31,107 nt of DNA, taken from a virus. Lineage: Duplodnaviria; Heunggongvirae; Uroviricota; Caudoviricetes. The DNA is taken from IMG/VR virus record IMGVR_UViG_2693429768_000006, one strand, 5' to 3'. Below the pieces are notes generated by a model. It did not search any database. It was not told where the DNA came from and was given only the letters and a program-made list of their open reading frames with translations. The first letter of the stretch is position 1, and each line of letters opens with the position of its first letter. The translations under genes were made by a program, and so were the position numbers. Shown here one piece after another: positions 1-15,027 of this stretch.

Positions 1-171
1 TCAATAAATCCCATCATTGCGATCAACCTCATCCTTAACCATTGATGCGAGCAGTTCTTCCAGTTTCTGCGCTGATAGCTTTACCTGGTGATCTTCAGCA
101 TCTTCCCGGGCTATTGTGGTTCGCGCAGTGGCTGATTTTGCTGACATCACCACAGGGGGCAGACGGACCAT
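1..171 (-). CDS. hypothetical small protein (56 aa from the Met with a GGAGG Shine-Dalgarno; the ORF-track version is 1..282)
   Basis: Minus-strand ORF ending in a stop at the window edge; internal ATG at 171 is preceded by GGAGG about 10 nt upstream. No family recognised. Confidence 0.2.
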   Translation of the reverse strand: MVRLPPVVMSAKSATARTTIAREDAEDHQVKLSAQKLEELLASMVKDEVDRNDGIY

Positions 172-237
172 TGAACCATGGCCTCCGGAACAAATAAGGG
201 CAAAAATAACAACCACTATCGAAAGCTCACAAACTAA

Positions 238-271
238 CCGCAGCACGTTCCTGCATACGACGTGTCTGCGG
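238..271. repeat. hairpin module downstream of tfa stop (copy 1 of 3, imperfect)
   Basis: CCGCAGCACG...CGTGTCTGCGG inverted repeat directly after the tfa stop; near-identical modules at 1288..1320 and 5218..5250. Confidence 0.5.
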
Positions 272-285
272 CATAATCCCAATGA

Positions 286-555
286 TTACTCCCTGACAGG
301 ATTTGCAGGCCACTCAATATCAGGTGCAGTTGATGTATCAACACGATTCAACAATACCCGATATTTATTCCATGCCTCCAGCAACGATCTTTCTTCCTCC
401 GTTGCGATTTCCAGATCTACAGCATCCTGCAGTGGCGCAATATACTCACTGAATTCCTGGATGTAGAACTGTGTGGTGACGGTCTTCCAGCCATTCGGCT
501 CCTGCTGTATCGAAGCATACCAGGCTATTTCAATATCGCTATGCTGCGGCAGCAT
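286..555 (-). CDS. tfa: tail fibre assembly protein, C-terminal domain only (Tfa-like, 89 aa, probably a remnant)
   Basis: Translation ends ...[37 protein letters not shown], the conserved C-terminus of lambda/Mu-type tail fibre assembly proteins; about half the length of the intact tfa genes at 2771..3298 and 3329..3862. Confidence 0.55.
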
Positions 556-563
556 TTAACCCC

Positions 564-592
564 TTGTAATTCATCGCCATAATTGATTTAAT
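564..592 (+). promoter_or_regulatory. candidate sigma70 promoter for the methyltransferase gene
   Basis: TTGTAA, 17-nt spacer, TTTAAT in an AT-rich spacer 20-50 nt upstream of the ATG; read by eye only. Confidence 0.25.
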
Positions 593-611
593 TCACAAAT
601 AAAACTATAAC

Positions 612-1280
612 ATGGTGAAATCAATGAAAAAAAACACAGATGATGGGGCTAAAATTTACACACCACTTACCCTAAAGCTTTATGACTGGTGGGTTTTGGG
701 AGTATCAAATCGGCTTGCATGGGGATGTCCTACAAAGGAACACCTTCTTCCACACTTTCTGGAACATGTAGGTAACAACCATCTGGATATTGGTGTTGGA
801 ACTGGGTTTTACCTTACTCACGTACCTGAGAGTAGTCTGATATCTTTAATGGATTTGAACGAAGCTAGCCTGAACGCGGCATCTACAAGGGCTGGGGAAT
901 CAAAAATTAAACATAAAATTAGCCATGATGTTTTTGAACCTTATCCCGCGGCGTTACATGGTCAATTTGATTCCATTTCCATGTTTTACCTTCTTCACTG
1001 CCTGCCTGGAAATATATCTACAAAAAGCTGTGTAATACGCAATGCGGCGCAGGCCTTAACTGACGATGGAACTCTATACGGAGCCACAATTCTTGGCGAT
1101 GGAGTTGTGCACAATAGCTTCGGTCAAAAACTGATGCGCATTTACAATCAGAAAGGCATCTTTTCAAACACAAAAGATTCCGAAGAAGGCTTAACACATA
1201 TACTCTCAGAGCATTTCGAGAATGTTAAAACCAAGGTTCAAGGTACTGTAGTAATGTTTTCCGCTTCAGGGAAAAAATAG
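612..1280 (+). CDS. class I SAM-dependent methyltransferase (moron; substrate unknown)
   Basis: 222-aa ORF with a Rossmann motif I, LDIGVGTGF, followed by an acidic residue (SLMDLNE). No DPPY/NPPY DNA-methyltransferase motif. Markedly AT-rich versus flanking phage genes. Alternative start at ATG 624 (MKKNTDD) has a better SD-like GGTGA. Confidence 0.75.
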   Translation: MVKSMKKNTDDGAKIYTPLTLKLYDWWVLGVSNRLAWGCPTKEHLLPHFLEHVGNNHLDIGVGTGFYLTHVPESSLISLMDLNEASLNAASTRAGESKIKHKISHDVFEPYPAALHGQFDSISMFYLLHCLPGNISTKSCVIRNAAQALTDDGTLYGATILGDGVVHNSFGQKLMRIYNQKGIFSNTKDSEEGLTHILSEHFENVKTKVQGTVVMFSASGKK

Positions 1281-1287
1281 CATCCAA

Positions 1288-1320
1288 CCGCAGCACGTTC
1301 TTGCTTAAGACGTGCTGCGG
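1288..1320. repeat. hairpin module (copy 2), between convergent methyltransferase and tfa remnant
   Basis: CCGCAGCACGTTCTT-GC-TTAAGACGTGCTGCGG, about a 14-bp stem; no U-tract on either side. Confidence 0.6.
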
Positions 1321-1478
1321 CATAATCCCAATGATTACTCCCTGACAGGGTTCGTAGGCCACTCAATATCAGGTGCAGTTGATGTATCAACACGGTTCAG
1401 CAACACCCGATACTTTTTCCAGGCTTCCACCACCAGCACGACAAGATGCCGCATACAGTGAACCAGTCAGTCCAGTTT

Positions 1479-1685
1479 TCAGACAACCAGTGCGTCACCT
1501 TTTTGAAGGCGCTTTAAAGCACGTTTTAATCCAGGTCGGCCTGTCCTTGTTCCGCTTAATTTATCTTCAAATATTTGTTCATATCCTGCACAAACAAGAG
1601 CGTTTCGTTGCAGATCTGTATTCTGGTCATTTGTTGATACCCTTACATAGCCAATCAGCACGCTGAATCTCCCGTCCAAAAGCAC
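1479..1685 (-). pseudogene. pin: serine DNA invertase (Pin/Gin/Hin/Cin family) 5' fragment, truncated by nonsense codons and fused to a tfa 3' remnant
   Basis: Translation ...VLIGYVRVSTNDQNTDLQRNALVCAGYEQIFEDKLSGTRTGRPGLKRALKRLQKGDALVV* matches the invertase N-terminus including the catalytic Ser region, then stops where Pin continues VWKLDRLGR. Downstream sequence switches to tfa 3' coding ([30 protein letters not shown]). Confidence 0.8.
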
Positions 1686-1715
1686 AAATCATGCCATACA
1701 GGCCAGAAACCGCCA

Positions 1716-1741
1716 TTATCTAAAACCTCGGTTTACAGGAA
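1716..1741. other. gix/pix-like 26-bp invertase crossover site (site L)
   Basis: TTATCTAAAACC-TC-GGTTTACAGGAA; two 12-bp half-sites around a 2-bp core, close to the Gin gix site as recalled from memory. Inverted relative to sites M and R. Confidence 0.7.
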
Positions 1742-1786
1742 ACGGTAAACAAGGCTGGTAACGCCGTTCAGCGTTCCGGCGATAAA

Positions 1787-2755
1787 ATGACCGGAGAACT
1801 GAAAATTGGCACGGTGAATGCGCTGCGAATTTTCAATGATGCCTTCGGTCTTATTTTCCGTCGTTCAGAAGATTTTCTTCATTTCATTCCGACGGCTGAA
1901 GGACAAGGCGAAAACGGTGATATAGGCCCATTAAGGCCATTCGCTATAAATCTGAGAACAGGTGCTATATCTGTCAGCCACGGGGCCAAAATTGATGGTG
2001 GGCTGGCGCTTGGTACAGATAACGCACTGGGCGGTAATTCCATTACTCTCGGAGATAACGACACTGGTATTAAACAGGGCGGCGACGGTGTCCTTTTATT
2101 CTATTCAAATGGACAACTGGCATTTGGACTTCAACCCGCATCTGCTGATTTTTATAAGCGGGTTGCATATATTCATCAGGGAATAATTCCTGATGGAAGT
2201 GGCGCATTTGCAGACCAGTTGAATAATGCCACCGCGCCTTTTGTTCAGACGCAGTTTGCCTGGAATCCCACTCCTGGTGGTCATTACGTGCCGATAGTTA
2301 AGGGCTTGTCCATTCGCAATGGACAGGGCTATCCCGGCGCGGTCAGCTTTGGGTATTTACTGACAGAACAGTATGGATTTCCGGTTCCATGTATTCATAT
2401 GCGTGGCGATGGCGGTAATGATGCTTTATGGCAGTTTAACCCGAACGATAAATCCTTTATTTCACCGGGTGCTCTTATTGCGGGTGGCGTCCGTTATAAC
2501 ACCGATGGAAATATATTTGGTGGGTGCTGGGGTTCAAACTTAAATGATTACCTGAATAGTTCTTTTATCAGAAATGTGCGTCTGGGAGGCAGACGTTCTG
2601 ACACATTATATCGCGGAGGACTTTGCGAACCAGGTAATGGTCATGTGACAACAGGATTGCAAATTATTGGTGAGGTTGATGGAGATGACTGGATGGTGTC
2701 ACGACCACTACAAAAATACATTTCTGGTAACTGGTATAACGTTGAACAGGCATAG
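1787..2755 (+). CDS. alternative side-tail-fibre C-terminal (variable) segment Sv', promoterless; frame is open from 1724
   Basis: Shares the GGNSI(T/V)LGDNDTG(I/F)KQ(G/N)GDG motif and C-terminal QKYIxGxWYNV with the other variable segment. The frame is open upstream to a TAA at 1721-1723 inside site L and reads L-G-L-Q-E across the crossover core. Confidence 0.7.
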   Translation: MTGELKIGTVNALRIFNDAFGLIFRRSEDFLHFIPTAEGQGENGDIGPLRPFAINLRTGAISVSHGAKIDGGLALGTDNALGGNSITLGDNDTGIKQGGDGVLLFYSNGQLAFGLQPASADFYKRVAYIHQGIIPDGSGAFADQLNNATAPFVQTQFAWNPTPGGHYVPIVKGLSIRNGQGYPGAVSFGYLLTEQYGFPVPCIHMRGDGGNDALWQFNPNDKSFISPGALIAGGVRYNTDGNIFGGCWGSNLNDYLNSSFIRNVRLGGRRSDTLYRGGLCEPGNGHVTTGLQIIGEVDGDDWMVSRPLQKYISGNWYNVEQA

Positions 2756-2770
2756 CCATCAGGAGAATAT

Positions 2771-3298
2771 ATGCAACATCTGAAAAATATTACCGCCGGA
2801 AACCCCAAAACCATTGAGCAGTATCAGCTTACGAAAAAAGCTGGCGTTATCTGGCTATATACAGAAGACGGTAAAAACTGGTATGACGAATTAAAAAACT
2901 TTCAGGATGATACTTTAAAAATAGCTTATGACCAGAAGGGGATTATTCGTTGTATTGAGAAAGACGTATCAACACTTAACCCTGACGGGTTAAGTGTTGT
3001 TGAGTTACCGAATATAACAGCCAACCGTCGCGCCGATATCTCGGGAAACTGGAAGTTTCTGGATGGTAAAGTAGTAAAGCGGGAATATACAAAACAGGAA
3101 CTGCAACAGCAGGCAGAGTTACAAAAAGCCGCTTTGCTTTCCGAAGCGGAGTCTGTGATTCAACCGCTGGAACGTGCTGTCAGACTGAATATGGCAACTG
3201 ATGAGGAACGCACACGACTGGAATCATGGGAACGCTACAGCGTTATGGTCAGCCGTGTGGATACTGCAAAGCCTGAATGGCCACAGAAACCAGAATAA
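2771..3298 (+). CDS. tfa: tail fibre assembly protein (cognate to Sv')
   Basis: 175-aa ORF with the Tfa N-terminus (MQHLKNI..., GVIWLY) and conserved C-terminus ([26 protein letters not shown]). Confidence 0.85.
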
Positions 3299-3304
3299 CA
3301 ACAA

Positions 3305-3329
3305 ATTAAGGCCCGTACGGGCCTTTTCT
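3305..3329. terminator. bidirectional hairpin between the convergent tfa genes
   Basis: AGGCCCGTACGGGCCT palindrome with T-rich sequence on both sides. Confidence 0.45.
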
Positions 3330-3862
3330 TATTCTGGTGGTTCCGGGAATGTTACAGGAAGAACCGAGGTATCAGTTGTCTCAACCTGTTGCACGTATCG
3401 CATCCAGTTCATCAGTTGCTGTCTGTCTGAATCAGTGATAATCCCCAAAGTAAGCTGTGTTTGCCAGAACTGCGTTTTTTCTCTGGCCTGCTGTAATAAT
3501 ATTTTTTTCTGGTTTTCCGTCTGTAGGCGCAACTCTTCTTCGGTATATACACGTTTAATGACTGCGCCATCTTTAAACATCCATTTACCTGAGTCGTCAG
3601 CACGCCGGTTGGCGGTAATATCAGGAATCTCAACGACGCTATAACCTTCAGGGTTAAGTGTGGAGGCATCTTTGGTTATGGCAACAATAATATTATTTTC
3701 ATCGTAAACAATCTTTATGGTGTCTGGCTGAAAGTTTTTCACTTCCTCATACCAGTTTTTTTCGTCCTCAGAGTAAAGCCAGATAACTCCGTGTTTCTTT
3801 GTTAACTCATACTGTTCCAGTGTTTTAGCATTACCCGCTTTTATGTTCTTTAAGTGCATCAT
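3329..3862 (-). CDS. tfa: tail fibre assembly protein (cognate to Sv)
   Basis: 177-aa [17 protein letters not shown]...GVIWLY..., same family as 2771..3298 but a divergent C-terminal half. Confidence 0.85.
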
Positions 3863-3863
3863 A

Positions 3864-4649
3864 TTAAACGCTCGCTACATTATACCAGGTGCCATTTATA
3901 TACTTTTGAACGGGTCTGTAATAAACGCCCGCTATATTATCGGCAGAGTTAGACCCTGTATCCTGAACATTAATACCAGACAATACATGACCTGAAGGGC
4001 ACCGGAAATACCATGTTTGCCAGTTGTTCACTCCATAATATTGCTGTGAACCAAGTCGAACATCTTTCACATAACGGGAATCAAAGTTACCGTAATCCGA
4101 GGGGTTAACACGCCCTGTAATATTTATGGTTTTATTACTTTGAATGCTTCCGGAGACAAAGCGCATAACATGGACGTTATTAGCATAAACATCCAGATTA
4201 CCATCGCCATTTTGTTTAAAGCCCGTGTCATTATCACCCAATACAATCGAATTACCGCCAAGAGCACTGGATGTTCCGATACCCAGTGTACCATTCAGTT
4301 GACCACCAGATAACGGCAGTGCACCAACATCTCCTGCTGAAGGTTTTCTGGTGGTGGTGTAAAATTCGGACCAGTCGGCTTCAAAACCATAACCATCACG
4401 GGCTGAACGATAAAAAACACCGCCATTTTTATAATTAATCCGAAACTGAGCTGCAGGACAACTTCCTTCTCCCATATAAAAATGAATAATTAACGTTGAT
4501 GCACCACTAATAGTTGCGTTATAGGCTCCGCTACTCCAGTTCCATCCAACTGCTTTATCATTCGCAACGGTGCTTCCTGTTTTCCCTAAGGCAAACGCAC
4601 CAACATGACTTGCTTTTAATGTGATATCGGAGGAACCATCAAAAGCCAC
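3864..4649 (-). CDS. side-tail-fibre C-terminal (variable) segment Sv, complete copy; frame is open up to 4814
   Basis: Identical to stf residues about 646-827 and then continues about 88 aa further ([14 protein letters not shown]...YNVASV). The frame is open upstream to an in-frame TAA within site M. Confidence 0.7.
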
Positions 4650-4813
4650 ATTGCTTATTTTCCTGGCAGTTTTTAATTTTGCAGCTGTAGAAGCATTGCC
4701 GGATAGTTCACCAGAAAGGCCACCGCTGAATGTTTGTCGATTAGTCCAGGTATTCGCTGTACTGAGTAACGGTATTTTCTCCCCGCTTGTGCCGAGTTCT
4801 CGTAAACCGAGGT
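4198..4813. repeat. direct repeat copy A (about 615 bp), identical to 5645..6259
   Basis: Aligned by eye at both ends and internally; diverges from copy B just right of the crossover core. Confidence 0.85.
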
Positions 4814-4822
4814 TTTAGATAA
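4797..4822. other. gix/pix-like crossover site (site M)
   Basis: TTCTCGTAAACC-GA-GGTTTTAGATAA; same orientation as site R, inverted relative to site L. The distal half carries the in-frame TAA. Confidence 0.7.
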
Positions 4823-4852
4823 TGGCGGTTTCTGGCCTGTATGGCATGATTT

Positions 4853-5059
4853 GTGCTTTTGGACGGGAGATTCAGCGTGCTGATTGGCTATGTAAGGGTA
4901 TCAACAAATGACCAGAATACAGATCTGCAACGAAACGCTCTTGTTTGTGCAGGATATGAACAAATATTTGAAGATAAATTAAGCGGAACAAGGACAGGCC
5001 GACCTGGATTAAAACGTGCTTTAAAGCGCCTTCAAAAAGGTGACGCACTGGTTGTCTGA
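4853..5059 (+). pseudogene. pin: serine DNA invertase 5' fragment (second copy, identical); likely GTG start at 4877 with a GGGAGA Shine-Dalgarno
   Basis: Identical 68-codon frame to 1479..1685; followed at about 5111..5203 by the tfa 3' remnant and at 5218..5250 by hairpin copy 3. Confidence 0.8.
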
Positions 5060-5261
5060 AAACTGGACTGACTGGTTCACTGTATGCGGCATCTTGTCGT
5101 GCTGGTGGTGGAAGCCTGGAAAAAGTATCGGGTGTTGCTGAACCGTGTTGATACATCAACTGCACCTGATATTGAGTGGCCTACGAACCCTGTCAGGGAG
5201 TAATCATTGGGATTATGCCGCAGCACGTCTTAAGCAAGAACGTGCTGCGGTTGGATGCTAT

Positions 5262-5643
5262 TTTTTCCCTGAAGCGGAAAACATTACTACAGTACCTTGA
5301 ACCTTGGTTTTAACATTCTCGAAATGCTCTGAGAGTATATGTGTTAAGCCTTCTTCGGAATCTTTTGTGTTTGAAAAGATGCCTTTCTGATTGTAAATGC
5401 GCATCAGTTTTTGACCGAAGCTATTGTGCACAACTCCATCGCCAAGAATTGTGGCTCCGTATAGAGTTCCATCGTCAGTTAAGGCCTGCGCCGCATTGCG
5501 TATTACACAGCTTTTTGTAGATATATTTCCAGGCAGGCAGTGAAGAAGGTAAAACATGGAAATGGAATCAAATTGACCATGTAACGCCGCGGGATAAGGT
5601 TCAAAAACATCATGGCTAATTTTATGTTTAATTTTTGATTCCC
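5262..5643 (-). pseudogene. methyltransferase 3' fragment (residues ~96-222), inverted duplicate of 895..1280
   Basis: Translation ESKIKHKISHDVFEPYPAALHGQ...SASGKK is identical to the C-terminal part of the 612..1280 product. The ORF-track N-terminal extension (5644..5740) is stf DNA read out of frame. Confidence 0.8.
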
Positions 5644-8135
5644 ATACCATCGCCATTTTGTTTAAAGCCCGTGTCATTATCACCCAATACAATCGAATTA
5701 CCGCCAAGAGCACTGGATGTTCCGATACCCAGTGTACCATTCAGTTGACCACCAGATAACGGCAGTGCACCAACATCTCCTGCTGAAGGTTTTCTGGTGG
5801 TGGTGTAAAATTCGGACCAGTCGGCTTCAAAACCATAACCATCACGGGCTGAACGATAAAAAACACCGCCATTTTTATAATTAATCCGAAACTGAGCTGC
5901 AGGACAACTTCCTTCTCCCATATAAAAATGAATAATTAACGTTGATGCACCACTAATAGTTGCGTTATAGGCTCCGCTACTCCAGTTCCATCCAACTGCT
6001 TTATCATTCGCAACGGTGCTTCCTGTTTTCCCTAAGGCAAACGCACCAACATGACTTGCTTTTAATGTGATATCGGAGGAACCATCAAAAGCCACATTGC
6101 TTATTTTCCTGGCAGTTTTTAATTTTGCAGCTGTAGAAGCATTGCCGGATAGTTCACCAGAAAGGCCACCGCTGAATGTTTGTCGATTAGTCCAGGTATT
6201 CGCTGTACTGAGTAACGGTATTTTCTCCCCGCTTGTGCCGAGTTCTCGTAAACCGAGGTATTCGATAACGGCGGCAACGGTCGATTTCGCAAGAATATCC
6301 CGCCCAACTTTTGTCAGGGTTGCCAGACTGGCAACATCATTCCCCGTAAAATACGGAAACCTGTCTGCCGCAGTAGCAAGCCCGGCCAGCGCCGTCAGGG
6401 TGGCATCTTTCGGTTGCTTACCCGCAAGCGCGTTAGTCATGGTGGTCGCAAAATTCGGGTCGTTGCCCAACGCCGCAGCCAGCTCGTTCAGCGTATTCAG
6501 TGCGTCAGGCGACGAGTCCACGAGGGCAGCGATCGCAGCCATAACATAAGCCGTGCTTGCGATTTGGGTATTATTCGTTCCCTGTCGCGCAGTTGGTGTT
6601 GTTGGCGTTCCGGTCAGTGCAGGACTATTTAAGGGCGCTTTCTTGTTCGTTTCACCCATTACCGCCTTAACCGCTTTTGGCGTTGCCGCCAGTGACTCGG
6701 AAGTGCTGTTGGTCGCACTGCTGAGCTGTACTATCCCCTTTTTCGTCGTGCTCGCATCCTCCAGCGCCACGGCGGATGCAATATCCTCTGCCCGTTTTGC
6801 TGCTGTCTCGGCGCGCGTTGCCGCGGATTCCGCCGTACTTTTGCTCTGAGCTGCCGCCGTCACACTACCAGCTGCCTCTGATGCTTTCATTGTTGCTGTC
6901 GTGGCACTACCTTTCGCTGCTGACGCTTGTCTGGTCGCCTCATCTTTTGAAGCAGACGCAGATGATGCCGATGACGCCGCTGAACTGGCTGACGATGCGG
7001 CTGCCGCCTTAGAGGAAGCAGCATTGTCTGCTGAAGTCTTTGCATTTGTTTCAGAGGTTTTTGCTGCAGAAGCAGACCTCGCTGCTGCAGTGGCTTGCTC
7101 AGTGGCTTTGCCAGCCTTCGTTGTGGCTGTTGAAGCGGATGATGCGGCGCTTTCTGCCGATTTTCCGGCGGCGGTGGCACTGGCTGAGGCCTGCCCGGCA
7201 CTTGTTGACGCGGCACTGGCAGACGACGCAGCCGCTGTTTTTGAGCCTGCCGCAGCCGAGGCGCTCTGTCCCGCTGCCGTTTCAGAAGACCTGGCGTTTG
7301 TCTCAGACGTCTTTGCCGCCTTCGCGGAATTGCCTGCCGCCGTTGCCGAGGAAGCGGCACTACTGGCGCTTGATGATGCGTTCGTTTCTGATGATTTCGC
7401 TGCCTCTTTTGAGGCCGCCGCACCCCGTGCCGAGGTGGCAGCTTCTGACGCCTTCGTGGTCGCTGTGGATGCAGAAGTGGCTGCCGATTTTTGTGATGCT
7501 GCGGCATTCGTTTCTGACGTTTTCGCGGCACTGGCGCTGGTAGCTGCCGCGCTTTTTGATGACTCTGCAGCAGCAGCACTTTTTGCTGCTTCACGGGCCT
7601 TTGTCGATGCCGTTCCTGCGCTGGAAGACGCTGACTGAGCCGACGACGCGGCCTGTCCGGCTGACGTGCTGGCGGCACGTGCTGAGGCTGCAGCATCGGT
7701 TGCATGAGTTGCCGCCTCGCTGGCTGATGCACTGGCATCGCTGGCTGATTTTTTCGCGGCTGCCGTATTCTGTGCAACCGCGGAGGCGTTACGTGACACC
7801 TCTTCCACCATCTGCTCAAAGCGGCGCAGTGCCTCCGGTCGGACATCATCCTCCGTCATGGCACCGAGAAAATCATTCAGCGTACCTGGTCTGGAACCTT
7901 CATAGACGGTAATGGTCCCGGCATGTGAAGGCGGAAAACCTTCAACCAGCAGGGTGACGCTGTACTGACCATGCTCAACATCCATGCTGTAACGTCCGGC
8001 TTCATCCGGATTTTCAGAGGCCACCGTGTTCACCACCACCGTGCTGCTGGTTCGTCTGGCCTTCAGCACAATGGTGCAGTTCTGTACTGGTTTTCCTGTG
8101 CCATCTTTAAGCACGCCAGAAATTTTTACTGTCAT
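5628..8135 (-). CDS. stf: side tail fibre protein Stf (lambda Stf homologue), C-terminally truncated in this configuration
   Basis: N-terminus MTVKISGVLKDGTGKPVQNCTIVLKARR... matches lambda Stf, with a long Ala/Ser/Thr-rich central region. The ORF ends ...[15 protein letters not shown] where it joins methyltransferase-derived DNA at about 5644. Confidence 0.85.
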   Translation of the reverse strand: MTVKISGVLKDGTGKPVQNCTIVLKARRTSSTVVVNTVASENPDEAGRYSMDVEHGQYSVTLLVEGFPPSHAGTITVYEGSRPGTLNDFLGAMTEDDVRPEALRRFEQMVEEVSRNASAVAQNTAAAKKSASDASASASEAATHATDAAASARAASTSAGQAASSAQSASSSAGTASTKAREAAKSAAAAESSKSAAATSASAAKTSETNAAASQKSAATSASTATTKASEAATSARGAAASKEAAKSSETNASSSASSAASSATAAGNSAKAAKTSETNARSSETAAGQSASAAAGSKTAAASSASAASTSAGQASASATAAGKSAESAASSASTATTKAGKATEQATAAARSASAAKTSETNAKTSADNAASSKAAAASSASSAASSASSASASKDEATRQASAAKGSATTATMKASEAAGSVTAAAQSKSTAESAATRAETAAKRAEDIASAVALEDASTTKKGIVQLSSATNSTSESLAATPKAVKAVMGETNKKAPLNSPALTGTPTTPTARQGTNNTQIASTAYVMAAIAALVDSSPDALNTLNELAAALGNDPNFATTMTNALAGKQPKDATLTALAGLATAADRFPYFTGNDVASLATLTKVGRDILAKSTVAAVIEYLGLRELGTSGEKIPLLSTANTWTNRQTFSGGLSGELSGNASTAAKLKTARKISNVAFDGSSDITLKASHVGAFALGKTGSTVANDKAVGWNWSSGAYNATISGASTLIIHFYMGEGSCPAAQFRINYKNGGVFYRSARDGYGFEADWSEFYTTTRKPSAGDVGALPLSGGQLNGTLGIGTSSALGGNSIVLGDNDTGFKQNGDGMGIKN
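5645..6259. repeat. direct repeat copy B (within stf)
   Basis: Identical to 4198..4813. Confidence 0.85.
6243..6268. other. gix/pix-like crossover site inside stf (site R)
   Basis: TTCTCGTAAACC-GA-GGTATTCGATAA; the constant-side half encodes V-I-E-Y of Stf and the core encodes L-G. Confidence 0.65.
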
Positions 8136-8159
8136 ACTTTTCCACCAATAAAAAAAGCC

Positions 8160-8191
8160 CGCAGCAGTGACGCCACGGGCTTCAGGACAGT
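8160..8191 (-). terminator. candidate rho-independent terminator after lom
   Basis: Stem AGCCCG/CGGGCT with a 14-nt loop, followed on the minus strand by a 7-U run; sits just upstream of the stf start. Confidence 0.35.
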
Positions 8192-8286
8192 GTAACTTTA
8201 CGTTTCCTCAAACGCAGTTCACCCCATAAGGTGGATGAACCTGCGTATCATAACAATATTTACAGAAGATAAATCGGCGTCTGTTG

Positions 8287-8886
8287 TCAGAAACGGTATC
8301 CGATACCAACAATAAATGCATCCGTTCGCCAGTCGCCACTACCGGAACCTTCATAAGCAAGGTCAATGGTCACGGATTCGGTCGGGTTAAACTGCACGCC
8401 AGCCCCCCACGCCAGAGACGTGTTGCTGTGGCGACCGTCATCACTTCCGGTCAGCACATCGTGCGTTTTCCCCTTGTTGTCAGTTACGCGGAGATAATCC
8501 CCGGAGAAAGTCGACACACGGCTGTAAGCCACACCCGCCATCGCATACGCGCTGAACCATTCATTCACGCGCACAGACGGCCCCGCCATCACGCTGAACC
8601 AGCGGTTACGCACGGAATCTTCATGCCAGCGGGTATCGCTGTAATGCGTTTTTTGCTCATCTTTGGCATTGGCATAACTGAATGACGTCACCAGCCCCAG
8701 CGTGTCCGTAAACTCATAACGGTATTTCACGTTAATCCCGTTCAGATCATCACTACCGGGAACGTTCGTCGAGGCATGGAGATACCCCGCGCTCAGCGTG
8801 GACTGATGTTCTGCTGCACTCGCTGGCGTAGCAGCGGCGACCTGCCAGACTACTGCGGACAAAATAACAGCACATAATTTACGCAT
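8287..8886 (-). CDS. lom: Lom-like outer membrane protein (Ail/Lom/PagC family), moron
   Basis: 199-aa ORF with a signal peptide and C-terminal ...GIGYRF; same position as lambda lom between J and stf. Confidence 0.85.
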   Translation of the reverse strand: MRKLCAVILSAVVWQVAAATPASAAEHQSTLSAGYLHASTNVPGSDDLNGINVKYRYEFTDTLGLVTSFSYANAKDEQKTHYSDTRWHEDSVRNRWFSVMAGPSVRVNEWFSAYAMAGVAYSRVSTFSGDYLRVTDNKGKTHDVLTGSDDGRHSNTSLAWGAGVQFNPTESVTIDLAYEGSGSGDWRTDAFIVGIGYRF

Positions 8887-8910
8887 AATTACCTCTCGCT
8901 TTTCTGCAAT

Positions 8911-8934
8911 AAAAAAGGCGCCATTTCTGGCGCC
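8911..8934 (-). terminator. rho-independent terminator downstream of J
   Basis: GGCGCCA-TTTC-TGGCGCC perfect 7-bp GC stem followed on the minus strand by a 6-U run. Confidence 0.6.
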
Positions 8935-8953
8935 CGTATCTGGGTTATAAAAT

Positions 8954-11900
8954 TCAGCTAATCGTGATGCCTGCAGTGGCTTTCTTCATCACCACAACCA
9001 GCAAATCGCTGATACTTGCTGTGGGATACCAGTTATTTACCAGCCATGCTGACACCGAAAACTCCAGTGTCATGTGACCGTGACCGGCAGGCATATCAAT
9101 AACACCACTGTAAATCAGCGTATTATCCAGCGCGGTACGGTTATAAATTTCAGCACCGTTTTTCCGCACTATCAGACGGCATGAGGAGTAAATATCAGTA
9201 TGCTCTTTCTCATGTTTAGCGCCGCTGAATGCCACCGCCGGAATAACAATCTGCCGGTCAAACGGCTGATCGTCATAAACCCTGACGGTAATGGTTCCTG
9301 ATGGCCACCGCTCCGGTGCACGGGAGTCCCGGGGGAAAGCTTTGCCCACTGTTTTAACGAGATCGCCTTCAATCTGGTTCGCGGACAATTTTCCCAGAAC
9401 CCGACAGTTCTCGTTAATCGTGACGTTGTTGAGCGTCCCGGAGTTCGCATTCACGTTACCGCTGATATCGGCATTTTTCGCCGTCAGCCGCCCGTCCGGT
9501 GTCAGGGAAAATGCCGGAGGATTACCGCCGCTGGTAATGGTGGGAGCCGTCAGATATTTCAGGAACACTTCATTCATAAATATCTGATCGCCCTGACCAA
9601 CAAACATCGGCTTTGTGTTGCCATTCGCAGGATTAATCATCGCAATCCTGTCTGCCGCCAGCAGCACCTGACTCTGCATTCCTGCTGGCGTATTCTCAAT
9701 ACCGGCACCGATACCCGCAATATAAAGGCGTCCGTCCTGCATCTGCTGCAGTTTCACGGCCCACATGCTGTTCAGGTTATTATTTGTATCAACCTGAACT
9801 TTCTGTATCTGCTGGATTGCCGCACTCTGATTTTCCAGTTTTTTATTGACGGTCTGCGTGATTTCATTGCTGACATTCGTAATGGACGTCCTGATTTCAG
9901 CCAGGTCCGGCGCAAGCTGACCGTTATCAATCTGCGTCCACAGCTCCTGGGCCAGATGTGTTTTCCCGATTTCTCCTTTGAAAAAATCCAGGTAACCTTC
10001 CGCATCATCGCTCGCCCGACCGACAGCCTCCACGAATGCCGATTTGCCAACAGTATTCACACTGCGGATATAAAAATAATAATCATGGCCCGGTTTGATA
10101 TTGATACTGGCAGCTATCCAGTACAGCGCCGAGCCAAGATAGCGGGCTGCGGTTTCAACCTGCCTGATATCCGCAATCCGCTTTTCCGAGAACCAGAACT
10201 CAAACTGTACCGTCGGGTCATAAACGGCAAGATGTGGCGTTGCGGTTATCTGAAAATAGCCCGGCGTCAGCTCAATCCGCGACGGTGCTGCCGGTGCGGT
10301 AATCCGGAAGGTGGTGGTGGCAGGTTCACCCTGCTGGCCATAGCTGTTTATCGCCCGCACCGTCAGGGTGTATTCCCCGAGCGGCAGGCCGCTGAAACGG
10401 TGCTCCGTGTCTGCGGTGATGGCGGTGGTCACCAGTCTGGCATCCGTTCCCTTACCACTGGTCAGGCGCAGACTGAAGCGCACACCCTTCACCACCCGCG
10501 GCGTGTCCCATTTCGCCTGCGCCAGATACTGGCCGTCAGCTGCGCTCACCTCCACCGTCAGGTGCTGCACTGCCGGTGGGATGACGCTGTTCAGGGAACC
10601 TGACTGCGGCTCAAAGCGGGCACCGTTATCCACGATGGCTTCTTTTTCCGGTACGTGCTGCACCGCCGTGATGGCAAAGGTGCCGTCCGTGTTTTCCCGG
10701 ATGGAGACACAGCGGAACAGGCGACGGCGCAGTGACGGCAGGGAGAGTCCCCACACCCCGTATGTCTCCACACCATCAGGCAGGGTACTGACCTGTATCC
10801 GGTCCGGCGCGGGGTGTTCGGTGATGTCCACACTCACCGGCTTACCGCTGCCGTTAATCAGGTTCACCGTGGCGGCACCGGTCTCCGGCAGGGTAACCTC
10901 ACGGTCCAGCGTCAGGGTGCGGGTGGCAGCATCAATGGACAGGACACGTCCGCCGGTCAGGGTCCCGGCATAGTCATTATCACAGATTTCAATAATGTCA
11001 CCGGGTGTGTGCCGCAGCCCCTGAGACCCGAGCGTGAAATCCACCGTCTGCGTTTCCAGCAGTTCGGTCTTTATCACCCACAGTCCGGCACGGTGGGCCT
11101 GACCGCGGCTGGTACAGCCGAACGCGTCCATCTTCAGCAGATTGCGCCCGTAGCGCAGTATGGCTTCCGGGTCTTCCACCAGCTCCGTGGAGGTCTGCCA
11201 GCCGTTCTGCGGGTCGGTGTAATTCACCTCCACCGCCGTGTGCCGGTCCTTCAGGGCACTGAAGCTGTAGCGGAACCCCACGCCGTTATCATCCACCACC
11301 ACATCGCTGTTGGTGTACGGCCACACCACATCCGACAGGCGGTCCTGAACAAACGTCAGCATCTGGCCGTTCCATACCGGCATACAGCGCATCGCCGAGC
11401 AGAAATCACTGAGAACATCCCACGCCTTACGCTGTTGTGCCAGGTACGCATTGAAGGTCATCCGCGGCTCGGTGCCCCCGAAGCCATCCGGCACCATCTG
11501 GTCGCAGTACTGCCCGATGGCATACAGCGCCCACTTGTCCACATCCGCCGCCCCCAGACGTTTTCCCATGCCGTAGCGCGGGTGAGTCAGCATGTCCCAC
11601 AGACACCAAGCCGGATTGTTGCTGTATGCCGGTTTCAGACTGCCGTCCCAGATACCACTGTACGTGCGTTTTTCCGGGTCATAGTTTGACGGCACCTGGA
11701 TGATGCGACCGCGGATATGGTAGTTCACCGTCATCTGCTGACCACCAAACTGCTCCGCATCCACCTGCATCCCCACAATGGCCGTGTTCGGGTAGCACTG
11801 TTTCACATCGATGATTTCGGTGTATGACGACCACAGCGTTCTGTTCTGCAGCTGGTCCGTGGTGCTGTCCGCCGTCTCCCTGACCATCCGGATGTTAAAG

Positions 11901-12427
11901 GGGCGGGGAGGCAGATTATCCAGAATCACCGAGGCCAGGAACTGTGAGGTGGTCTTGCCGTTAATGGTGACATCCTTTTCTGTCACCCAGTTACCGTTAC
12001 GCTGTAACTGAATCAGCAGACGGACAGAGGACGGATTACGGTCACCCTTTGACGTGGTCTCCACCAGTGACTGCACCCCGAAGGTCACCCGCAGGCGGTC
12101 AATGTTCGCTGACGTAATGGTGCGTGTTACCGGTTTTGCCCTGGTCACTTCGACACCCAGTACAGTTTCAGAGCCGGAGGACTCAAAGCCTTCCGGTGGT
12201 GTCTGCTCCTGCTCCCCGGCACGCCAGACCGCGGTCACACCGTGTATCACGGGATTACCGTCCGTGTCCGTCAGCGGGGTTTTGTTCACCAGAATACTCT
12301 GCAGGCCTTTCACCGGGCCATCTATCGGCCCCTCACCAATCGCATCAATCACGCTCATCATCTGCGTGGATTTGAGATTGTCTTTCGCCTCACGCGGTGT
12401 GTGCGCCTTGCCGCCACCTTTGCCCAT
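8954..12427 (-). CDS. J: tail tip / host specificity protein J
   Basis: 1157 aa; strong similarity to lambda gpJ from the N-terminus ([22 protein letters not shown]...) through the conserved core. C-terminal ~150 aa diverge from lambda. Confidence 0.95.
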
Positions 12428-12494
12428 TACATCACCTCTTACCGTGATAATTGTTCACTCACAAAAACAACAGGCACCTCACCGGGTGCCTGCG

Positions 12495-12620
12495 TCATGA
12501 CGGAATAAAATTTCTGAATATCTTCACATTTTCACACACTGACTGTGGCGCGTATAATTTCACTGCGTTAGTGTTTTTTTGCCCGAGTAACAAAAACAAC
12601 TCCTTCACATTGATCTTCAT
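12495..12620 (-). CDS. candidate 41-aa ORF in the I-J intergenic insert
   Basis: ATG at 12620 to TGA at 12495 (MKINVKELFLLLGQKNTNAVKLYAPQSVCENVKIFRNFIPS); weak SD; overlapped antisense by the candidate RNA. Confidence 0.15.
   Translation of the reverse strand: MKINVKELFLLLGQKNTNAVKLYAPQSVCENVKIFRNFIPS
12531..12558 (+). promoter_or_regulatory. candidate sigma70 promoter (TTCACA, 16-nt spacer, TATAAT)
   Basis: Perfect -10 hexamer TATAAT at 12553-12558 with a 5/6 -35; points rightward into a terminator about 100 nt away. Confidence 0.4.
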
Positions 12621-12662
12621 TTGTCTGTCCCCGCAGCTCCGCGATCACTGCGGGATTTTTTT
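12565..12662 (+). ncRNA. candidate ~100-nt small RNA (promoter-to-terminator unit), antisense to the small ORF start
   Basis: Bounded by the promoter above and an intrinsic terminator; no plus-strand ORF with a plausible start lies between them. Confidence 0.3.
12629..12662 (+). terminator. rho-independent terminator (plus strand)
   Basis: CCCGCAG...CTGCGGG stem followed by ATTTTTTTA. Confidence 0.5.
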
Positions 12663-12667
12663 ATGTT

Positions 12668-13348
12668 TTATCCCTGTCGCCCGATAACCACGACCTTTCC
12701 GCCCCCGCCTTCATCACGGGTGCTGATGTCCTGGGATATACGGCGGGAGCCAACCAGCATTTCCCCGTAAGGCACCGGCATCGAGTTCCCCTGGGCAATC
12801 ATGTTATCCAGCGAGGAAAAGTACGTGTTCTGTCTGCCGTTATCCGTTGCGCGGTAATCCGGTGTTTTTGCCTTCGGGGCCAGCATCTGGGCCACACCGC
12901 CCAGAATCATGCTGGCTCCAAGTGAAAACAGCATCGTGGTGGCAGAAAAACCACCGGCTGCCAGGGCTGAACCCCATAACGCCATTGATGCCCCGGCAGT
13001 GAAGAAAGAGCCCACGATGGCTGCCGCCCCCAACACAATCTGCAGTCCACCCTTTCCGGCCCCGGCCAGTCGCGGCACAATGTGGATGACCGTTCCCTCA
13101 CCCAGCTGTTCGTGAAGGCGGGCGTACACCACCTCCGGTGCCGTGTCTTCACCGGCAATACGTATCTGGTACCAGCCTTCGTTCATCTGAAGGCGAAAGC
13201 CCGGCATCTGCATCGACAGGGCGCGAATGGCTTCCGCTGCCGTGTTCACATACAGGCTGAGGCGGCGGCCAAATCGTTGTAAATCCCCGTGAAGGCAGAT
13301 GTGTGCCAGTGGCGGTGACGCCAGACAGAATGCGTTCGTCGTTGCCAT
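12668..13348 (-). CDS. I: tail assembly protein I
   Basis: 226 aa; matches lambda gpI (ICLHGDLQRFGRR, GAAAIVGSFFTAGA, NTYFSSLDNM). Confidence 0.9.
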   Translation of the reverse strand: MATTNAFCLASPPLAHICLHGDLQRFGRRLSLYVNTAAEAIRALSMQMPGFRLQMNEGWYQIRIAGEDTAPEVVYARLHEQLGEGTVIHIVPRLAGAGKGGLQIVLGAAAIVGSFFTAGASMALWGSALAAGGFSATTMLFSLGASMILGGVAQMLAPKAKTPDYRATDNGRQNTYFSSLDNMIAQGNSMPVPYGEMLVGSRRISQDISTRDEGGGGKVVVIGRQG

Positions 13349-13989
13349 TTTTCGGAATACCTCTCCCGTTTACTCAGTTGTTCAGGAATATGGTGAAGCA
13401 GTTCACCGTTGCCGCAGTAAATGGCGGCATGATTAGCCACCGATGCGCCGAAGCAGCACAGCAGGATATCGCCCGGCTGTGCAGAGGACAGGGGCACCCG
13501 GTAAAAGCCGGTGACTGCCATATTGTCCAGGTACAGGTTCTGGCCGTTGCGCCACCAGTCATCCTCGCGATGAAAATCCGGCATATCAATTCCCGCCAGA
13601 TGGTATGCATCCCGGAACAGCGTGTAACAGTCCGTCACCCCGTGCTCAAAGCGCCGTCCTGTCAGATGTGGCACACAGCAGAATTTATGAATTTCCCCCC
13701 GGCAGACCAGCCACCAGGGCAGTGCGCTTTTTATCTGCAGCCGCCGGTCAGCCTCGCTCAGCCAGGGCAGCTCACCGGGATGACTGTGGACCAGTGCCAC
13801 AATCTCCCCCTGTATCTCTGCCCGCAGCCAGTCTTCCGGTGCGATACGAAAATACGCCTCCGGCTCTGCGGAAATATTCACACAAGGGATATACCGCTCC
13901 CCCTCCGGCGTGCTTATCACGAAGCCGCACGACTCCGCAGGCGCACACCGCCGGGCATGCGCCAGAATCGCTGATTCAGTCTGTGTCAT
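13246..13989 (-). CDS. K: tail assembly protein K (JAMM/MPN plus NlpC/P60 domains)
   Basis: Start taken at MTQTESAILAHARRCAPAESCGF (matches lambda gpK), not the upstream ATG of the ORF track. HSHPGELPWLSEAD JAMM motif and GVTDCYTLF Cys motif present. Confidence 0.85.
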   Translation of the reverse strand: MTQTESAILAHARRCAPAESCGFVISTPEGERYIPCVNISAEPEAYFRIAPEDWLRAEIQGEIVALVHSHPGELPWLSEADRRLQIKSALPWWLVCRGEIHKFCCVPHLTGRRFEHGVTDCYTLFRDAYHLAGIDMPDFHREDDWWRNGQNLYLDNMAVTGFYRVPLSSAQPGDILLCCFGASVANHAAIYCGNGELLHHIPEQLSKRERYSEKWQRRTHSVWRHRHWHTSAFTGIYNDLAAASACM

Positions 13990-13999
13990 AAACCGGGAT

Positions 14000-14698
14000 T
14001 TACTGCGAAAGTTTATTAATGGAAAGGAAACCGCCAAAATTGCCGACATTCCTGCGCAGTTCACACCCGCGCATGCACTTGCTGCATCTGTCCTTACGGA
14101 TATCCGTGGTGGGTTTATCGAACTCATCCGCCACAGCCCCGCCCGTGTAACCACACTCATCAGAGCGGTAGGTCCACATACAGGTGTTCGCCAGCATGAT
14201 ACGACCGGGAAACTGCGCTCCGTCCGTCTCGGTCGGTGTGGCCAGCACAAACGAGGCCGTCATGGCTGTCAGCTGCGACATCTGCTCCACCACCCAGCGG
14301 TCGCTCAGCTCCTGCTCCGGGTCCGCTTCCGGATTGCCCGCCACAAAATTCACCGCATCCAGAAAACGGGCATACACCCGGCGGCGGACCACCGTGGCCC
14401 CCACCAGACTCTGCAGGTCTTCCGCCATCCCGGTGACAAGGCCGAACAGATTGGACACCGTCAGCGACGGTCTGGCACTGCTGCCTTTCCCGTTCATTTC
14501 AAAGCCGCTGCCATCAATCGGGTACGCCTCATACTTACGCCCCTGCCAGGTGACCGGCTCCCCTTTTTCATTCAGCTCATTACAGAAAAAATACCGCTCA
14601 CCACCCTGTACCGTCAGGTCGATTTCCCAGAGTACCACCCGCGGTGACTGCTCTGACTTAACCGACTCGTTCAGACTTTCTTCGCGAATATCCTGCAT
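14000..14698 (-). CDS. L: tail tip assembly protein L
   Basis: 232 aa; MQDIREESLNE...GNFGGFLSINKLSQ matches lambda gpL end to end. Confidence 0.95.
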   Translation of the reverse strand: MQDIREESLNESVKSEQSPRVVLWEIDLTVQGGERYFFCNELNEKGEPVTWQGRKYEAYPIDGSGFEMNGKGSSARPSLTVSNLFGLVTGMAEDLQSLVGATVVRRRVYARFLDAVNFVAGNPEADPEQELSDRWVVEQMSQLTAMTASFVLATPTETDGAQFPGRIMLANTCMWTYRSDECGYTGGAVADEFDKPTTDIRKDRCSKCMRGCELRRNVGNFGGFLSINKLSQ

Positions 14699-15027
14699 CA
14701 GTTCACCACCTGCTTAAACTCCGCGCTGAACTCAACGCGCAACATCCCGACCCGCGCAGACCACCCGGCACAGGTCACCTTTATCTGCCGGTATGCATAG
14801 GGTGGCTTCCACAAAAATGCCTTCCAGCCACCGTGCTCTGCCAGGAACGCTTCCAGATGCCGGGCCTCCTCCCGGGTCACGGAAAGCGTCACCCTGTATG
14901 TTTTCAGGTCAGCATTCAGCCCTGCCGCCATACGCTGTGAGTACCCGTCACCAAAACGCACTTCACGCACCGATGGCTGCGAGTTCACCTCCATATCCGG
15001 CTTCACTTTCCAGCGAAAGGTTTTCAT
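14698..15027 (-). CDS. M: tail tip protein M
   Basis: 109 aa; MKTFRWKVKP...LRVEFSAEFKQVVN matches lambda gpM. Confidence 0.95.
   Translation of the reverse strand: MKTFRWKVKPDMEVNSQPSVREVRFGDGYSQRMAAGLNADLKTYRVTLSVTREEARHLEAFLAEHGGWKAFLWKPPYAYRQIKVTCAGWSARVGMLRVEFSAEFKQVVN

Follow-up and report, generated by a model that had tools for sequence, protein, structure and literature searches.

How can a tail-fibre gene be switched by DNA inversion when the invertase gene beside it is dead, and what do two long inverted copies of that dead gene contribute? Both questions are raised by IMG/VR record IMGVR_UViG_2693429768_000006, 31,107 nucleotides of DNA from a virus of the Caudoviricetes, which we refer to as the window. 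A first-pass annotation, made from the letters alone, had described decayed 5' fragments of a serine-recombinase gene inside ~840-bp inverted repeats and had proposed that the segment between these repeats (1736..4802) is inverted by an invertase supplied in trans or by RecA. The locus proves to be an invertible tail-fibre cassette of the Mu type (Gin/Pin family), carried by a lambdoid prophage of Escherichia coli. The constant part of the fibre gene stf can be joined to either of two variable C-terminal parts (Sv or Sv'), each with its own chaperone gene (tfa or tfa'), by inversion at crossover sites called gix (Table 1). With moderate confidence we regard an orphan cassette flipped in trans, combined with an extra segment that arose as an artefact, as the best explanation overall.

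The invertase gene in the window has shrunk to a 5' stump of about 236-256 nt with two stop codons. The stump, whose canonical GTG start in arm 1 lies at 1661, reads VLIGYVRVSTNDQ...LQKGDALVV, then TGA in place of tryptophan (TGG>TGA at coding nt 183), KLD and, four codons after the first, a second TGA; near codon 79 it is truncated by an in-frame fusion with the 3' end of a tfa gene (EAWKKYRVL). Translation of both arms confirmed that they hold this same fragment, as the first-pass annotation had described. The Pfam Resolvase match covers only positions 2-69 of the 145-position domain, and the stump is unable to make an enzyme. A tblastn search of all 31,107 bases with an intact 199-amino-acid query returned the two stumps alone, in line with the earlier statement that the window holds no intact invertase. 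Over coding nt 1-190 the stump differs from Mu gin at seven positions (96% identity), the TGG>TGA change among them, and by this alignment it is a Mu gin allele. It is also a mosaic (1430-1480): gin-like to coding nt ~190, and there 94% identical to the gene of a P2-like prophage described below, it is closer to e14 pinE than to gin in the last ~45 nt before tfa. The in-frame fusion sits at a short shared CTGGTGG-like stretch. Since the gene is reduced to a stump, the enzyme must come from another element.

To see the natural form of the locus we compared the window with 5,426 complete E. coli genomes. No genome covered more than 86% of window positions 500-6400. The arm formed by the methyltransferase gene, a tfa stump and the invertase stump occurs in 410 genomes, each with one stump and no long repeat, and none of the 410 has an intact invertase at this locus. 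The best 136 genomes span the region in 4,455 bp where the window has 5,901 bp, exactly 1,446 bp fewer, at 99.6-99.9% identity. In these the locus lies in a lambdoid prophage at ompW beside trpA-yciGFE and encodes a Stf of 941 amino acids, Tfa, Tfa', Sv', a 60-amino-acid "recombinase family protein" that is the stump, the tfa stump and the methyltransferase. The cassette was found in two orientations: 136 genomes are arranged as window 1-4828 followed by 5645 onward, and 239 have the opposite junction, Sv-gix-stump-methyltransferase. Two 721-nt junction queries failed to separate the orientations, the arm alone giving 86% coverage, and a redesigned query did so; a 501-nt junction query overcounted, the P2-like prophage having a 96% identical Sv-gix-invertase junction.

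Each orientation gives an in-frame fibre fusion across the site, accompanied by its own Caudo_TAP chaperone. In strain MLI121 the 941-amino-acid Stf is intact through Sv and is followed by the 177-amino-acid Tfa. In EC958, which has the opposite orientation, the constant part and Sv' form one continuous open reading frame (ORF) of 968 amino acids, with the 175-amino-acid Tfa'. The Prokaryotic Genome Annotation Pipeline (PGAP) presents the fibre gene of Sv'-orientation genomes as a pseudogene without a C-terminus and leaves Sv' unannotated (for example EC958 2290-5196 and WS3294A 4290-5786, in coordinates of our extracts), where the ORF is actually continuous. This pseudogene call is an artefact of annotation that goes with just one of the switch states.

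The window contains three gix sites. We found that gix3, inside stf, is the true second boundary of the natural switch, so that the invertible segment runs from gix1 to gix3; the first-pass annotation had missed this third site and had placed the segment at 1736..4802. The sites gix1 and gix3 are inverted relative to each other and share the core GTAAACC-GA-GGT, and gix1 is identical at 25 of 26 positions to the gix that lies next to gin in Mu. The outer half of gix3 stays with the stf constant part in either orientation. By contrast gix2 is a hybrid, with the inner half of gix3 on its left and the outer half of gix1 on its right. This half-site swap is identical to the product of an in-silico invertase crossover, with exchange within the 12-bp shared core of the 26-bp sites. 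The stump-side site of EC958 is identical to gix2, which places the natural exchange within the 12-bp core as invertase crossover predicts. RecA exchange was considered as the natural flipping mechanism and rejected, the shared core being just 12 bp.

Inversion at gix occurs in nature. Both orientations are found among the related genomes and also within one record, that of strain WS3294A (RefSeq NZ_CP035819.1). Strain 4/0 is in one state and strains 4/1-1 and 4/4 are in the other; their names suggest a single isolate series, and with kinship taken from the names this difference hints at flipping on short time scales.

Where could the enzyme come from? EC958 carries an intact invertase of 199 amino acids in a P2-like prophage near serS, adjoining a G segment of its own, and in relatives belonging to sequence type 131 (ST131) the two prophages are about 530 kb apart. 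The Sv and tfa of this P2-like prophage are 96% identical to window 3552-5067, and its gix, TTATTTAAAACC-TC-GGTTTACGAGAA, is near-identical to the sites in the window. The 3' 409 nt of the P2-like invertase gene, a part that is absent from the stump, were found at 100% identity in relatives of both orientations, namely JJ1886, JJ1887, JJ2434, CD306 and MNCRE44 for one and EC958, 4/1-1 and 4/4 for the other. Thus the earlier suggestion that the switch is driven in trans is well supported in the relatives, where an intact invertase is present in the ST131 genomes examined and flipping goes on beside a dead local gene. We conclude that, for these relatives, flipping of the lambdoid segment in trans by a Gin-type invertase encoded elsewhere is well supported. 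Which enzyme acts is inferred, and in ST131 relatives the candidate is the 199-amino-acid enzyme of the P2-like prophage (WP_000905061.1). As it lacks an intact adjacent invertase, a defining feature of a self-contained system, the locus is best described as an orphan member that is driven in trans.

Driving in trans is not new in principle and is already implied by the literature. PinQ of prophage Qin flips the e14 segment in trans (PMC12529663). A preprint on ST131 wound isolates describes reversible inversion within one isolate, confirmed by polymerase chain reaction (PCR) and involving P88-like and BP-4795-like prophages, and notes an invertase in two elements only, the P88-like prophage and a phiE255-like one (bioRxiv 10.1101/2022.05.07.487787). 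Switching of the invertase-less ST131 prophage had thus been reported before. The preprint also mentions a translocation among homologous fibre regions. In a side-by-side comparison of the EC958 P2-like prophage (extract 9669-14360) with window 3552-6272, ~1.5 kb of Sv/tfa is 96-98% identical and the gix is near-identical. The P2-like and lambdoid prophages are possible partners for invertase- or RecA-mediated exchange.

The stump may retain more than a trace of its origin. Two Fis-like 15-mers, GTATCAACAAATGAC (1626-1640, centre +29) and GTGCAGGATATGAAC (1577-1591, centre +78), have centres 49 bp apart, and the nearer one is ~96 bp from the centre of gix1. A crude scan for the Fis motif gave many matches; this pair was retained for its correct spacing and its conservation in four genes, the stump, the P2-like invertase gene, pinE and Mu gin. 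The pair probably also matches the Fis sites of Hin. Published coordinates of Mu sis or of the Hin enhancer were not found in the accessible texts. The Hin enhancer is 65 bp long, with a Fis site at either end, and lies ~100 bp from hixL (PMC3798978). That paper credits Kahmann et al. 1985 with locating the Mu element within gin. Given 96% identity between the stump and Mu gin over nt 1-190, and a spacing of the Fis-like pair that matches the geometry given in PMC3798978, it is a sound inference that the stump retains a putative cis enhancer. The first-pass annotation had suggested one enhancer copy per arm and a search of both stumps for pairs of Fis sites; candidate pairs lie at 1577-1640 and 4898-4961, and gin homology and geometry support these putative copies.

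From these observations we propose how the natural switch works. Its order is the stf constant part, gix, Sv with tfa, the opposed tfa' with Sv', gix and the invertase stump, followed by the older tfa 3' end and the methyltransferase gene, in a prophage at ompW next to the trp operon. The stump retains the gix half-site on its outer side together with ~190 nt from the start of gin, with a putative enhancer that would have to act in cis. A Gin-type invertase from elsewhere in the genome would catalyse the flip, with exchange at the central dinucleotide of the 26-bp sites, and the two orientations yield a fibre of 941 or 968 amino acids, each paired with a chaperone of its own. Neither the second stump nor the 841-bp inverted repeat belongs to the switch; both lie in a 1,446-bp extra segment, an exact copy of the opposite isomer's Sv-gix-stump-methyltransferase junction joined mid-Sv at an arbitrary point.

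The structure of the window around this extra segment is well defined. The inverted arms extend over 841 bp without a mismatch, so the limits given in the first-pass annotation were exact. The repeat finder set the limits at 895-1741 and 4797-5643, with two mismatches, both within the crossover site. There is also a direct repeat, in which 4199-4813 and 5645-6259 are identical at 615 of 615 positions; the repeat finder had listed just 300 bp of it. The first-pass annotation had noticed neither this direct repeat nor the hybrid nature of gix2 and the extra segment. The outer arm limit at 895 splits a codon of the methyltransferase gene and thus marks a breakpoint and no functional boundary. The order of the window can be written X-A-gix1-B-C-gix2-A'-joint-C-gix3-D, where A is 895-1741, B is Sv'-tfa'-tfa, C is the 5' part of Sv, D is the stf constant part and the joint is at 5644. 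Window 1-4828 plus 5645 onward is collinear with one isomer, the part to 4828 matching MLI121, MLI114 and WS3294A at 99.9%, and 1710-5643 is collinear with the opposite isomer, as found in EC958 and WS3294A. Removing the 1,446-bp segment in silico restored the wild-type locus, with the choice of 4814..6259 as its limits being arbitrary within the 615-bp repeat. At the joint the filler base A matches neither parent, and the sole shared microhomology is GATT. The joint cuts stf, which ends ...KQNGDG-MGIKN before a stop codon, MGIKN being out of frame.

The extra segment is probably an assembly chimera of a culture that contained both orientations. A minority-isomer long read overlapping the shared 3-kb interior would have led the contig out through the stump and the methyltransferase gene, the wrong flank, to the end of the read at 895, and this contig end would then have been joined to another that started at 4199. 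The joint at 5644 was found in 0 of the 5,426 genomes and, in exact searches of genome, viral and metagenome contig collections, was again absent; a look-up of the truncated 835-amino-acid Stf returned no record. The WS3294A record, 99.9% identical to the window here, offers a precedent. It has an untrimmed terminal overlap in which its last 9.8 kb repeat record positions 6,634-16,461 at 100% identity save for the reversed invertible segment, so that mixed cultures at this locus do corrupt assemblies. The false joint in that record falls inside the methyltransferase gene. It differs from the one in the window in being the start and end of the record, where the joint in the window is internal and a wrong-flank extension is joined mid-Sv. 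We favour an artefact because the joint is unique and its filler is foreign to both parents, as a miscalled contig-end base would be, and because the breakpoints flank a segment that is heterogeneous in cultures, with WS3294A as the precedent. An origin of the joint in a de Bruijn graph of short reads was considered and rejected, as nodes would break at gix instead of at 895 and 4199, and no k-mer is shared.

A lesser though substantial chance belongs to a real duplication. In an opposite-orientation cell, a 1,445-bp stretch that begins at methyltransferase nt 895, takes in the stump and gix and ends within Sv would have been tandemly duplicated, through illegitimate recombination, with one filler base, after which the invertase would have inverted the whole stretch bounded by the outermost gix pair. 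The same outcome would follow from integration of a 1,446-bp circle or from template switching at inverted gix sites. Starting from the wild type, inversion at the gix centres, duplication and outer-site inversion in silico reproduced every base of the window, down to the half-sites, with gix1 and gix3 parental and gix2 hybrid. The unbroken path through the 841-bp and 615-bp repeats suggests spanning long reads in an assembly that is otherwise of high quality, and tandem duplications in bacteria are common and transient. Nevertheless, the arrangement is unique among the complete genomes and three contig collections, a one-base filler foreign to both parents is unusual for E. coli duplication joints, and both breakpoints adjoin the one segment for which heterogeneity in cultures is known. 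It is also far less probable that a sequenced colony carries a newly arisen 1.4-kb duplication at a given locus than that an assembly problem occurred here, of the kind documented in WS3294A. We consider it rather unlikely that the three-site arrangement is a real genome state formed by duplication across one gix and a subsequent invertase flip.

If the duplication were true, the locus would have three gix sites and two stumps with putative enhancers, along with inverted arms of 841 bp and direct repeats of 615 bp. In the present state the Sv-type fibre would be broken; a flip between gix1 and gix3 would give the tandem form with an intact 968-amino-acid Sv' fibre, and one between gix1 and gix2 would invert B-C and alter no fibre. 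RecA acting across the 615-bp direct repeats could remove the extra piece and so regenerate the wild type; deletion between direct sites is disfavoured by wild-type Gin-family enzymes. A two-state Mu-type switch would have acquired its third crossover site together with another enhancer and a surplus piece of Sv, raw material for multi-site fibre-shuffling systems such as Min of p15B, and a stump kept only as a cis enhancer would have been copied together with its site.

The original reading, in which the two stumps within the arms form an evolved switch that inverts 1736..4802 through RecA or an invertase in trans, is very improbable: although the arms match perfectly and have the length that RecA needs, and gix1 and gix2 are inverted with a putative enhancer-bearing stump beside each, the second arm is present at none of the 410 related loci, of which 375 were found in one or other orientation with one stump and 26-bp gix sites, and flipping 1736..4802 would alter no fibre, because stf is cut at 5644 and the partner site is the one at 6243-6268. 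RecA-dependent inversion across the arms could occur only as a side effect of a real duplication, and switching does not require it. That annotation had itself named misassembly of the duplication, with an intact invertase in the true genome, as the alternative; the misassembly is probable, but the intact invertase at this locus has no counterpart among the relatives.

Several points weigh against the account that we prefer, of an orphan cassette flipped in trans and an artefactual extra segment. An intact invertase in the window's host is extrapolated from ST131 relatives and was not confirmed in MLI121 or MLI114, the two strains closest to it. Enhancer function, like binding by Fis, is argued from homology and geometry, and the artefact origin is deduced. 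Apart from the extra segment, the window differs from MLI121 and MLI114 here by substitutions alone and is free of indels, and a simple biological path reproduces it exactly. Finally, the 136 to 239 split could partly reflect old states fixed in sublineages and not ongoing flipping. On this last point, the mixed WS3294A record and the PCR evidence in bioRxiv 10.1101/2022.05.07.487787 argue for ongoing flipping.

Table 1. Features of the invertible tail-fibre locus, in window coordinates (strand "." where none applies).
Feature	Position	Strand	Basis or remark
Class I S-adenosylmethionine-dependent methyltransferase gene, 222 amino acids, intact	612..1280	+	ORF; Pfam Methyltransf_12/23/25
Arm 1	895..1735	.	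Native copy; present in all related genomes
Hairpin	1286..1314	.	Between methyltransferase and tfa ends; copy at 236-264; repeat families D3 and I4
tfa 3' stump	1335..1429	-	Remnant of a non-invertible stf-tfa-methyltransferase backbone as in EC24
Invertase (gin/pin) 5' stump	1430..1685	-	Translation, alignment, Pfam
Putative Fis-dependent recombinational enhancer, copy 1	1577..1640	-	Motif scan, conservation, geometry
gix1	1716..1741	.	TTATCTAAAACC TC GGTTTACAGGAA; parental type; between stump and Sv'
Sv', alternative tail-fibre C-terminal part	1742..2755	+	ORF 1787-2755
tfa', chaperone for Sv', 175 amino acids	2771..3298	+	Pfam Caudo_TAP, E = 9e-35
tfa, chaperone for Sv, 177 amino acids	3329..3862	-	Pfam Caudo_TAP, E = 6e-32
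Sv, complete variable C-terminal part	3864..4796	-	ORF 3864-4649 with gp37_C; here detached from stf constant part
Direct repeat, copy 1	4199..4813	.	Sv 5' part up to gix core
gix2	4797..4822	.	TTCTCGTAAACC GA GGTTTTAGATAA; recombinant hybrid, beside arm 2
Arm 2	4803..5643	.	Second stump, second putative enhancer, tfa stump, methyltransferase 3' end
Extra segment, 1,446 bp	4814..6259	.	Arm 2 and second 615-bp copy; absent from every related genome
Arm 2, invertase stump	4853-5108	+	Same stump as in arm 1
Arm 2, putative enhancer, copy 2	4898-4961		
Arm 2, tfa stump	5109-5203		
Arm 2, methyltransferase 3' end	5258-5643	-	
stf, 835 amino acids as found	5628..8135	-	ORF; phage_tail_N; constant part 6269-8135
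Novel joint	5643..5645	.	Methyltransferase nt 895 (reverse complement), A (5644), equivalent of Sv nt 4199
Direct repeat, copy 2	5645..6259	.	Copy remaining joined to stf constant part
gix3	6243..6268	.	TTCTCGTAAACC GA GGTATTCGATAA; parental type; inside stf

Outside the switch itself, the methyltransferase gene is annotated as WP_000240999.1 in relatives, and 895-1280, the final 386 bp of the gene, make up the outer part of arm 1. The hairpin downstream of it is likely a bidirectional terminator, though it was not among the calls of a simple terminator scan. In relatives, the tfa stump is annotated by PGAP as a partial tfa. Sv' is read only if inversion fuses it to the stf constant part. The methyltransferase gene is bracketed by ~150-bp direct repeats of ~90% identity (236-383 and 1286-1432, also 5106-5252), each consisting of a tfa 3' end and the hairpin, so that two tfa stumps flank the gene. 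The arrangement resembles that of a moron which was inserted, or else duplicated, between modules for tail fibres. The Ala/Ser-rich middle of stf (6550-7850) contains spurious long ORFs of 245, 320 and 167 amino acids in other frames and on the opposite strand. The remainder of the window consists of lambda-like late genes (J, Lom, tail, head and terminase).

The best match to the rest of the window was EC24 (99.9%), which has a non-invertible stf-tfa-methyltransferase layout. EC24 is collinear with window 1-1429 at 99.8%, and there an intact tfa of 194 amino acids precedes the methyltransferase gene. The tfa stump is explained by this layout: the cassette took the place of most of stf-tfa, and one of its boundaries fell inside the invertase gene. 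The prophage is itself a mosaic. As far as 9400, the fibre region shows 100% identity with MLI121 and MLI114, two strains from Mali; the block from J to terminase has 99.9% identity with EC24 and does not resemble the head module of MLI121 (8200-31107 compared). The MLI121 record begins exactly at the large terminase gene of the prophage (extract 1-1662), and ~9 more chromosome records, among them those of EcPF18, S3, S4, R6 and the AVS strains, begin ~24 kb from the locus. If these also start at terL, a rotation tool may pick the prophage terL over dnaA.

The closest known system is the G segment of Mu (Gin, gix, and sis in gin), which has the same succession of constant fibre part, site, two opposed Sv/chaperone pairs, site and invertase gene. 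The two share a near-identical gix and gin start and, most probably, the enhancer. The window differs in that its element is a lambdoid and not a Mu-like prophage and its invertase gene is a stump fused to tfa. In the Mu-like Yersinia phage vB_YpM_3 the cassette is 97% identical and the invertase is intact. The cassette thus ranges over Mu-like Yersinia phages, P2-like prophages and the lambdoid prophage described here. Min of plasmid p15B is a multiple-inversion system. If the extra segment were real, the window would share with Min its three or more crossover sites in the form of exactly three, along with a partial Sv duplicate, as a possible intermediate; it differs from Min in having three sites only, one state that gives a truncated fibre and no sign of selection or spread. 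The P segment of e14 with Pin is likewise an E. coli prophage tail-fibre inversion in which PinQ acts across prophages (PMC12529663). Unlike the window, e14 has an intact pinE, to which the stump is ~75% identical over most of its length. The 'Bone' isolates of the ST131 preprint very likely contain the same prophage pair, a P2-like prophage with an invertase and a lambdoid one without; the passages retrieved by a term search contain no mention of a stump, its enhancer-bearing part, hybrid half-sites or a duplication (bioRxiv 10.1101/2022.05.07.487787).

In practical terms, the locus is heterogeneous in cultures and corrupts finished assemblies, and long inverted repeats next to invertible segments need a check of the reads before they are interpreted. 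For the biology of these phages, a widespread E. coli lambdoid prophage, found among others in pandemic ST131, has a working host-range switch despite the loss of its invertase. What remains of the dead gene appears to be retained for its DNA sites, as just the part that is expected to act as a cis enhancer. The lambdoid prophage would depend on a P2-like prophage for the enzyme, a dependence between co-resident prophages.

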